A stretch of DNA of 64,000 nucleotides. It comes from a virus (lineage: Duplodnaviria > Caudoviricetes). Positions within the stretch are counted from its first letter, which is position 1. Each line of letters starts with the position of its first letter. Under the pieces are notes generated by a model. That model made no database searches. It was not told the origin of the DNA and saw only the letters and a program-made list of their open reading frames with translations. Made by a program: the position numbers and the translations under genes. Location of the stretch: the IMG/VR virus record IMGVR_UViG_3300042558_004043. One strand, given 5' to 3'. Positions 33,621 to 34,072 of this stretch are shown piece after piece.

Positions 33621-34072
33621 GGTGGGGTGGCAGACGAAAGTTAGATATATCCAAGTCAAACGTAGCTACGGTGTTTTTAAAACACGATGGATAAACGACA
33701 AGTAGAGCTTTAAGGGAATAAGTCGCTCTTATTCCTCCCCCACCGACCACATTATAGGTTGATTGGGGAATGATTATACCAATAGTTTGAGAGTGGATAC
33801 CGACTGGTATAATCGGAGTTGGCAGGTATTCACCTGAAGTAATGCCAATCGTAAAAGGGGTTGTCCACTCGACCATCTTCCCCTTACCTAAACTTAATGT
33901 GTTGTTCCCTTGAGAAAGGAAAGGAGTAGAGCTTAGTGACACTAGAGTCATCACTACAACACATAGGGTTTCTCACCCTAAAAATTCACAGAGTGGCGCA
34001 GGTTGATACTACTTCGCAAGTAGATTGATACAGAGTAAAAAGAGGTGGGGGAAACCACTCATTAACCCACCC
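33621..34072 (+). ncRNA. array of unknown structured RNAs (units A-D)
   Basis: GC-richer non-coding tract with closed multistem units and two pseudoknots (see findings). Confidence 0.65.

Follow-up and report, generated by a model that had tools for sequence, protein, structure and literature searches.

Positions 33755–33890 (plus strand) of the analysed stretch of phage DNA, which is 64,000 nucleotides long and hereafter called the window, hold a member of a new, tightly conserved structured RNA family that carries modular inserts and has no entry in Rfam. We designate this segment Unit B. More than 100 distinct members of the family, 76–162 nt in length, were found in IMG/VR phage contigs. 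As judged from the comparison of their sequences, the conserved fold is a three-way junction, with two arms inside a short outer stem (AGG/CCU). The family is carried by uncultivated freshwater phages, whose hosts are probably Bacteroidota. We give an even chance to the reading that Unit B is a phage small-RNA gene whose product is cut from a precursor and acts in trans via its invariant single-stranded letters.

A preliminary description of the window had proposed here a structured RNA of a family that it did not recognise. This proposal was borne out: the region encodes a conserved non-coding RNA with no counterpart in Rfam 15, where the search with positions 33584–34077 gave no match at E ≤ 10. 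The internal pairings that had been proposed fared less well and are discussed together with the comparative fold.

Extent of the family and its conserved core

The 110-aa protein encoded next to Unit B has 395 relatives in viral contigs, and Unit B accompanies only the closest ones. In these close relatives Unit B was 100% identical (one copy had a single change), although the flanks differed by 2–10%. Unit A, the neighbouring module on the 5′ side, was 96–98% identical in the same relatives, and the 110-aa protein was 94% identical. Covariance model R1, built on a fold like that of the preliminary description, returned only identical copies and one weak match, in locus L090, and was rejected. 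The weak match wholly lacked the P2/pseudoknot region and retained the 5′ and 3′ ends, thereby exposing the true core. The pattern GCCAATC-N-TAAAAG-NNNN-TGTCCAC, derived from the L090 overlap, had at least 118 matches in viral contigs; an independent 5′ anchor, AGGTTGATTGGGGAA, likewise had at least 118 matches there and added further members.

The 5′ part of the family core reads (A/U)AGGUUGAUUGG and is followed by the variable insert, after which the 3′ part reads AG(U/A)AA-N-GCCAAUC-R-UAAAAG-NNNN-UGUCCAC-NNNN-CCAUCU-NNNN-CUUUCCU. The window copy matches this core over its whole length. About 40 letters are invariant within the 75-nt core, a sequence constraint resembling that of ribozymes and riboswitches. 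With the core model R2, 101–105 members scored 73–123 bits, and no intermediate scores were obtained. Unit B, one complete class-1 member (that is, with a pseudoknotted insert), scored 106.8 bits (E 9e-23) and was the sole R2 match within the window. When R2 was run against 0.9 Mb of phage DNA, nothing beyond the members passed E 0.001. The motif in 13 member loci had no match in Rfam 15 at E ≤ 1. Blastn searches of 50,697 GenBank phage records (INPHARED) gave no hit either for the 495-nt gap that contains Unit B or for a 76-nt minimal member, and no description of the motif was found in open-access papers and bioRxiv. Among prokaryotes (one genome per species, 185,579 species), only two short MAG contigs contained it, one of them labelled Bacteroidetes. 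The motif is thus essentially phage-only.

Each of the eight large genomes that carry the motif had one copy. Its occurrence was patchy: three of 35 related phage records contained the motif, and 31 of the 34 records with the neighbouring protein did not. At eight loci a class-2 copy was directly followed by a class-1 copy. At another locus (L252:3300–3345), a class-1 motif breaks off after the 5′ strand of the pseudoknot and passes straight into tRNA-like sequence, which looks like a recombination scar.

Other recurrent conserved modules were seen near the motif. One of them, roughly 60 nt long and ending in ...CCACUGGAGAAUAG-N5-UUGCAAAU, lies directly 5′ of the motif in nine loci (L090, L095, L100, L104, L121, L181, L186, L197, and L198). 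Modules of 82–84 nt after tRNA-Met or tRNA-Glu (10 loci) and of 92–93 nt after tRNA-Trp were also recurrent. These are probably further uncatalogued RNA families. In addition, the model of the abiF RNA motif scored below its threshold (30.5 bits vs. the gathering value of 37) at L090:1400–1431, about 55 nt upstream of the family motif.

Comparative evidence for the fold

Base pairs were counted in three alignments: 19 members of the same length (A3; the window copy and 18 relatives), 101 members aligned with MAFFT (A4), and 102 distinct members aligned with the model (A5). The 5′ strand of the outer stem, (U/A)AGG with an additional U33759 in the window copy, occupies 33755–33759 and pairs with 33886–33890. 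AGG/CCU was 97–100% paired in the 102 members among the matches listed, and pair 1/136 swaps between A-U and U-A.

Arm 1 is the sequence-invariant helix S_mid with the variable insert at its tip. The strands of S_mid in the window are UGAUUGG (33760–33766) and CCAAUCG (33845–33851); as UGAUUGG/CCAAUCR, they were 99.9% paired in the 102 distinct members among the matches listed. All variation in this helix (A93G, A94G, C92U, C96U, and R97) preserved wobble pairing and no two-sided change was present, so that it is invariance and wobble-preserving changes that argue for S_mid.

The insert of the window copy is built from two helices. The first one, P2 (33772–33781 paired with 33805–33814), coincides with the 10-bp stem GATTATACCA/TGGTATAATC (starting at 33772 and 33805) of the preliminary description, which was confirmed both in its letters and by two-sided changes at 5 of the 10 pairs in A3. 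The second one, PK′, connects GUGGAUACC in the P2 loop (33793–33801) with GGUAUUCAC (33825–33833) by 9 bp, including one G-U, and forms an H-type pseudoknot with the P2 loop. PK′ was 100% paired in A3 with two-sided changes at five of its nine pairs, and its longest run averaged 7.7 vs. 4.85 in shuffles for the 65 class-1 members among the matches listed, which have differing insert types. The pairing of the P2 loop with the stretch that lies between CGGAGUU and AGUAA places the window copy in class 1.

Arm 2 is the hairpin S_hp, AAAG-NNNN/NNNN-CUUU (33854–33886), in which 33854–33861 pair with 33879–33886. Inner UG/CA pairs (33862–33863 with 33874–33875) and a loop with the invariant UCCAC (33864–33868) cap this arm. 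Compensatory changes occurred at six of the eight S_hp pairs in the 102 members among the matches listed; a single pair reads GC in 39, UA in 27, CG in 24, and AU in 10 of them. The variable part of S_hp in the window copy consists of paired GGG/CCC and one U-U mismatch. The strands joining the helices at the junction are constant (one U, then UA, then none), which indicates that S_hp stacks directly on the outer stem. Together the outer stem and S_hp would make a 4 + 8 = 12-bp helix, unbroken on its 3′ strand. By this helix arithmetic, the coaxial helix could mimic the acceptor/T-arm minihelix of tRNA.

The preliminary description had combined P2 with three other pairings: a closing stem GGGGAA/TTCCCC (33765/33878), a hairpin TTGGCA/TGCCAA (33819/33843), and a pseudoknot of 9 bp, one of them G-U, between GAGTGGATA in the loop (33791) and TGTCCACTC near the 3′ end (33862). 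All of these letters are present and every pairing exists in the window copy. The nested part of this fold (−24.4 kcal/mol) is energetically equal to the comparative fold (−24.1 kcal/mol) in the window sequence; therefore, single-sequence thermodynamics cannot separate the two. The argument that so much pairing is unlikely by chance failed on energy alone, since the 136-nt fold had a z-score of −1.78 on the plus strand (−2.21 on the minus strand) and 8 of 200 shuffles folded equally well. The alignments, however, contradict this fold. The closing stem was 98% paired in the 19 same-length members via G-U, yet its changes were one-sided (G-C to G-U) with zero compensatory ones. Zero compensatory changes were likewise found for the hairpin (75% paired in A3) and for the loop-to-3′ pseudoknot (78% paired in A3, with pair 42/111 unpaired in 16 of 19 members), so that three of the four helices are without such support. 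Their 3′ partners sit in helices that do covary. The closing stem and the hairpin give way to different pairings that are conserved: the CCCC of the former belongs to S_hp and the CCAA of the latter to S_mid.

Pseudoknot pairs that do not covary had been named in the preliminary description itself as grounds for refutation, and on these grounds its pseudoknot is refuted. In window-like members the pseudoknot partner of the P2 loop is 33825–33833, not 33862–33870. The longest run of the originally proposed pairing averaged 4.98 in the 65 class-1 members among the matches listed vs. 4.61 with shuffled loops, and the 9 bp of the window lineage are the extreme of the distribution in these 65 members. 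A kissing contact between the insert and the UCCAC loop was also considered as a family feature and rejected, the complementarity being that of shuffled inserts (4.98 vs. 4.61; 4.12 vs. 3.99 with Watson-Crick pairs only). Class-2 and minimal members have no partner for this pseudoknot or for the closing stem, yet UCCAC is invariant in them. As a working structure the fold of the preliminary description is, in our opinion, hardly credible; its 9-bp pseudoknot may be a coincidental or alternative pairing in the window lineage.

The same variation bears on the possibility that the region is coding. A minus-strand ORF (33493–33954; 153 aa, GTG start) does cover Unit B, and among the matches listed 68 of 101 family members have an open frame on the minus strand. 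Against a real gene, the ORF had no Pfam match, starts elsewhere in locus L002, and in L090 has an equivalent frame that crosses a tRNA gene; the differences in length between members are not multiples of three, and the variation takes the form of paired compensatory changes. We regard the chance that this ORF is a real gene as negligible and take the open frame to be a by-product of base composition.

Genomic setting and transcription

The IMG/VR virus record from which the window is taken has 81.7 kb and a completeness of 28% (CheckV), so the genome of the phage should be roughly 300 kb long. A close relative with a complete genome (G001) has 321 kb. An ORF near Unit B carries a T9SS C-terminal sorting domain (Pfam) and therefore indicates a Bacteroidota host. 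The sequencing runs that contained window DNA came from lake and river samples.

Unit B lies on the plus strand within a 495-nt ORF-free gap extending from ORF 33251–33583 to the gene of tRNA-Lys(CUU) (34078–34151, plus strand; ARAGORN; Rfam tRNA model, 36.7 bits), which is the first tRNA on its 3′ side in the same non-coding block. Unit A adjoins it on the 5′ side and Unit C on the 3′ side, and the nearest tRNA is 186 nt downstream. Further tRNAs, a tmRNA, and a GOLLD RNA with tRNA-Met after it lie within the same 7 kb (Rfam). The non-coding block is headed, on the plus strand, by a candidate Bacteroidota-type −7 promoter box, TATATTTG (33587–33594), and a boxA-like sequence, GTTCTTTAAAAA (33600–33611), both read by eye. 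This pair is kept in the window relatives, and the same pair stands directly 5′ of family members in L112 and L156. We infer that 33587–33611 is a putative promoter/boxA-like leader of the block. Nothing relevant was returned by a sigma-70 promoter scan.

The gap is composed of separable modules, Unit A (33621–33744), Unit C (33893–33985), and Unit D (33986–34072), in addition to Unit B. Unit C (about 93 nt) is missing in all close relatives, the deletion starting 2 nt past the end of Unit B, and in L112 the order is promoter, class-2 motif, Unit C, and Unit D, without Unit A. Unit A and Unit D each contain a hairpin with compensatory changes in L002. The tRNA 3′ of Unit D is Lys(CUU) in the window (34078–34151) and Glu(UUC) at the same place in close relatives (L002:3736–3808, L083). 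Several tRNAs and tRNA-like elements of the window array have a near-identical acceptor stem and the 3′ tail ACA; together with the Lys/Glu swap, this sharing looks like cassette exchange within the array.

A tRNA-shaped element was noticed at 34248–34358 (plus strand). Its acceptor stem of 7 bp (AGUCAGG/CCUGACU) is combined with a D-like arm and with a T-arm whose loop reads UUCGAUU, and a roughly 60-nt extended arm takes the place of the anticodon arm; neither ARAGORN nor Rfam called it. Its depth was far above the rest in two metatranscriptomes (about 100 and about 370). Long-insert elements of this kind are also present in L090 (about 1186–1345) and L104, with tRNA-model matches 104 and 124 nt long. 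Farther along the window, the GOLLD RNA (38789–39182, plus strand, 321 bits) is directly followed by tRNA-Met (39200–39273, plus strand), and a phage tmRNA (39821–40198) lies on the opposite, minus strand. In L090 and L110, tmRNA genes are less than 1 kb from the motif.

Contigs of four metatranscriptomes from four studies covered 33613–34360, some of them identical to the window sequence. Almost no metatranscriptome contig covered the flanking ORFs (about 32950–33540 and 34650–35000), which speaks for an abundant, stable RNA transcribed from the non-coding block rather than for carried-over DNA. The contig ends at 33863 and 33888–33892 coincide with strain polymorphisms and an indel and are thus uninformative on RNA ends or processing.

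Such transcription also weighs on the idea that the conserved entity is a DNA-level element, a recombination hotspot or small mobile cassette shuffling tRNA and ncRNA modules, with the RNA fold being incidental. This would agree with the presence of the motif in only three of 35 related phage records, with the shuffling of the surrounding modules (gain or loss of Unit C, the order in L112, the variable tRNA after Unit D), and with the complete identity of Unit B between differing flanks. Yet compensatory base-pair changes in three helices indicate selection on the RNA fold; moreover, the element is single-copy, has no terminal repeats apart from the 3–4-bp outer stem, and is present in RNA libraries. 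We consider a DNA-level role very doubtful.

A tRNA abuts the element in 62 of the 108 distinct contexts among the matches listed. A same-strand tRNA starts 2–5 nt after the extracted element in 53 of these 108 contexts, a tRNA ends 1–3 nt before it in 37, and both sides are occupied in 28; Trp-motif-Tyr is the commonest arrangement among the matches listed. The element lies on the strand of its neighbors and leaves no more than a few bases of an intergenic spacer unoccupied. Abutment to a tRNA is typical of the family, not universal, the window copy being an exception. About six members are situated between two ORFs, with a stop codon 5–8 nt before and an ATG 12–26 nt after the element, and still others have a Bacteroidota-type −7 box or another of the recurrent structured modules in front of them. 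Placement between two protein genes also fits a processing or cis-acting element.

The former would be an RNA-processing element, either a new self-cleaving ribozyme or a tRNA-like t-element for RNase P/RNase Z, that cuts the polycistronic transcript and defines the ends of its neighbors. Its snug fit in spacers between tRNAs, and also between ORFs, as well as the many invariant unpaired letters around a junction and pseudoknot, as in small ribozymes, speak in its favor. The 12-bp helix would have the length of the tRNA acceptor/T minihelix, and with plant mitochondrial t-elements (PMC1920247) there is a known case of punctuation by tRNA-like structures. This rival stays serious, since the module can be accommodated in any intergenic spacer and has the 12-bp composite helix. 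It is nevertheless unlikely in our estimation. One copy was found per 170–320 kb genome with dozens of tightly packed tRNAs, and a general punctuation signal should recur. The flanking tRNAs already provide RNase P and Z sites within 1–7 nt, no Rfam model of self-cleaving ribozymes (hammerhead, HDV, twister, twister-sister, pistol, hatchet, or glmS) matched the motif, and no cleavage site is readable in the metatranscriptome contigs, whose break points coincide with strain polymorphisms.

The latter would be a leader sensing a ligand or factor, riboswitch-like or a put-like antitermination RNA, for the gene directly downstream. The element is always just 5′ of a same-strand feature (a tRNA at 2–5 nt or an ATG at 12–26 nt), stands directly after a promoter-like box in L112, L114, L137, and L156, and is conserved in sequence at an aptamer-like level. 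The downstream genes, however, have no relation to one another and comprise many kinds of tRNA, a DUF2061 protein, and assorted small ORFs. Neither a terminator nor a sequestering helix was present after the motif, the only nearby terminator-like site lying past the tRNA, and most copies are in the middle of a tRNA array, not at its start. A cis-regulatory role is therefore improbable.

Clustering of 2,153 ORFs yielded no protein partner, as no family of neighboring proteins was shared by more than 24 of 129 loci. HAD_SAK_2 was encoded in 22 of the 129 loci (L115:177–1031 and 21 others); a link to RNA repair via this domain was rejected, as it is present in genomes without the motif and missing from the motif-bearing G001. 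TROVE and RtcB were absent in five genomes, with or without the motif. The window encodes cREC_REC, an RNA-repair-type receiver domain for cyclic-phosphate processing (36486–36938, plus strand); neither cREC_REC nor HAD_SAK_2 correlated with the motif at the genome level. A link to GOLLD was also rejected: G016 has the motif without GOLLD, and G011 and G023 have GOLLD without the motif.

Proposed function and comparison with known RNAs

The single copy per genome and the unrelated neighbors speak against the element punctuating transcripts in general or regulating a single class of genes in cis. For the small-RNA gene that we favor, transcription would start from the leader at 33587–33611 within a stable-RNA operon composed of units A, B, C, and D and then tRNA-Lys. 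The RNA would be excised from this precursor; where tRNAs flank it, RNase Z and RNase P, the endonucleases of the 3′ and 5′ ends of tRNAs, respectively, might do so. In the window Unit B has no adjoining tRNA, so that release by RNase P/Z would be indirect there. The free RNA could then act in trans as a compact protein- or RNA-binding molecule, with the invariant unpaired letters (the UCCAC loop, UAAAAG, and AG(U/A)AA) as its functional surface.

It is conceivable, but rather unlikely, that the family represents a new functional class of RNA that is active in its own right, as a tRNA-minihelix mimic or as a new class of self-cleaving ribozymes. As a mimic, it would be a portable module that engages, in Bacteroidota hosts, the machinery of tRNA processing, of CCA addition, or of tRNA-targeting defence. 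In both versions, the UCCAC loop and the junction letters might form the active or binding site, and the pseudoknotted insert, which is specific to its class, might serve as a stabilising peripheral domain.

Phage tRNA arrays are usually annotated as tRNAs with empty spacers between them, and here such a spacer is a single-copy RNA gene. The family marks a stable-RNA operon whose modules are shuffled, in phages of hosts that have been little studied, and a model of the R2 type could label such spacers across IMG/VR at once. The minimal 76-nt form is suited to probing, crystallography, and pull-downs. With it, a small and tractable orphan RNA joins a short list near tRNA genes that includes GOLLD, ROOL, and the stable RNAs of phage T4.

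Several known systems share features with the family. A riboswitch combines an aptamer with an expression platform and related downstream genes, and this combination was not found in the Unit B family. YrlA (RF02553), the bacterial Y RNA-like partner of Ro/Rsr, resembles the family in being small and modular, in its conserved helix, and in its tRNA-related context; it is at times carried by phages and has a link to RNA repair genes. The RF02553 model matched only tRNA pairs in the arrays, never the motif, and TROVE, the Ro counterpart, was absent in five of five genomes. The small ribozymes of phage regions (hammerhead, twister, twister-sister, pistol, hatchet, and HDV-like) are similar in size, have a junction and a pseudoknot, and are intergenic in phage operons; many invariant unpaired letters are common to them and the Unit B family. 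Unlike these ribozymes, the core of Unit B is nested rather than doubly pseudoknotted and is single-copy.

The mascRNA of MALAT1 is a tRNA-like processing element in a longer transcript. The trait shared by mascRNA, t-elements, and Unit B would be a coaxial helix of roughly 12 bp, and by analogy RNase P and RNase Z could cut Unit B out. Plant mitochondrial t-elements (PMC1920247), too, have a compact fold that lies within a longer transcript. Unit B differs from tRNA-like elements in that it has only two arms and lacks the consensus of the T-loop and of the D-loop; it was called a tRNA neither by ARAGORN nor by the model RF00005.

GOLLD and ROOL are large, ornate structured non-coding RNAs of phages or prophages, of unknown function; they typically neighbor tRNA genes, with which they probably share a transcript (PMC5737381). 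Like the Unit B family, GOLLD (RF02032) and ROOL (RF03087) are phage-borne and stand next to tRNA genes; in the window, GOLLD is 5 kb from Unit B, directly before tRNA-Met. They are much longer, 400–800 nt vs. about 75–160 nt, and have no sequence or model similarity to the family. Another parallel is found in the tRNA cluster of phage T4. Its stable RNAs C and D (species 1 and 2) are small non-tRNA RNAs whose function is still unknown and which mature from the same precursors as the tRNAs of the cluster. The host of T4 is Escherichia coli, whereas that of the window phage is probably a member of Bacteroidota; a relation in sequence would not be expected, and the motif had no blastn hit in GenBank phages. 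What the T4 RNAs and the Unit B family have in common is a small non-tRNA RNA inside a phage tRNA cluster.
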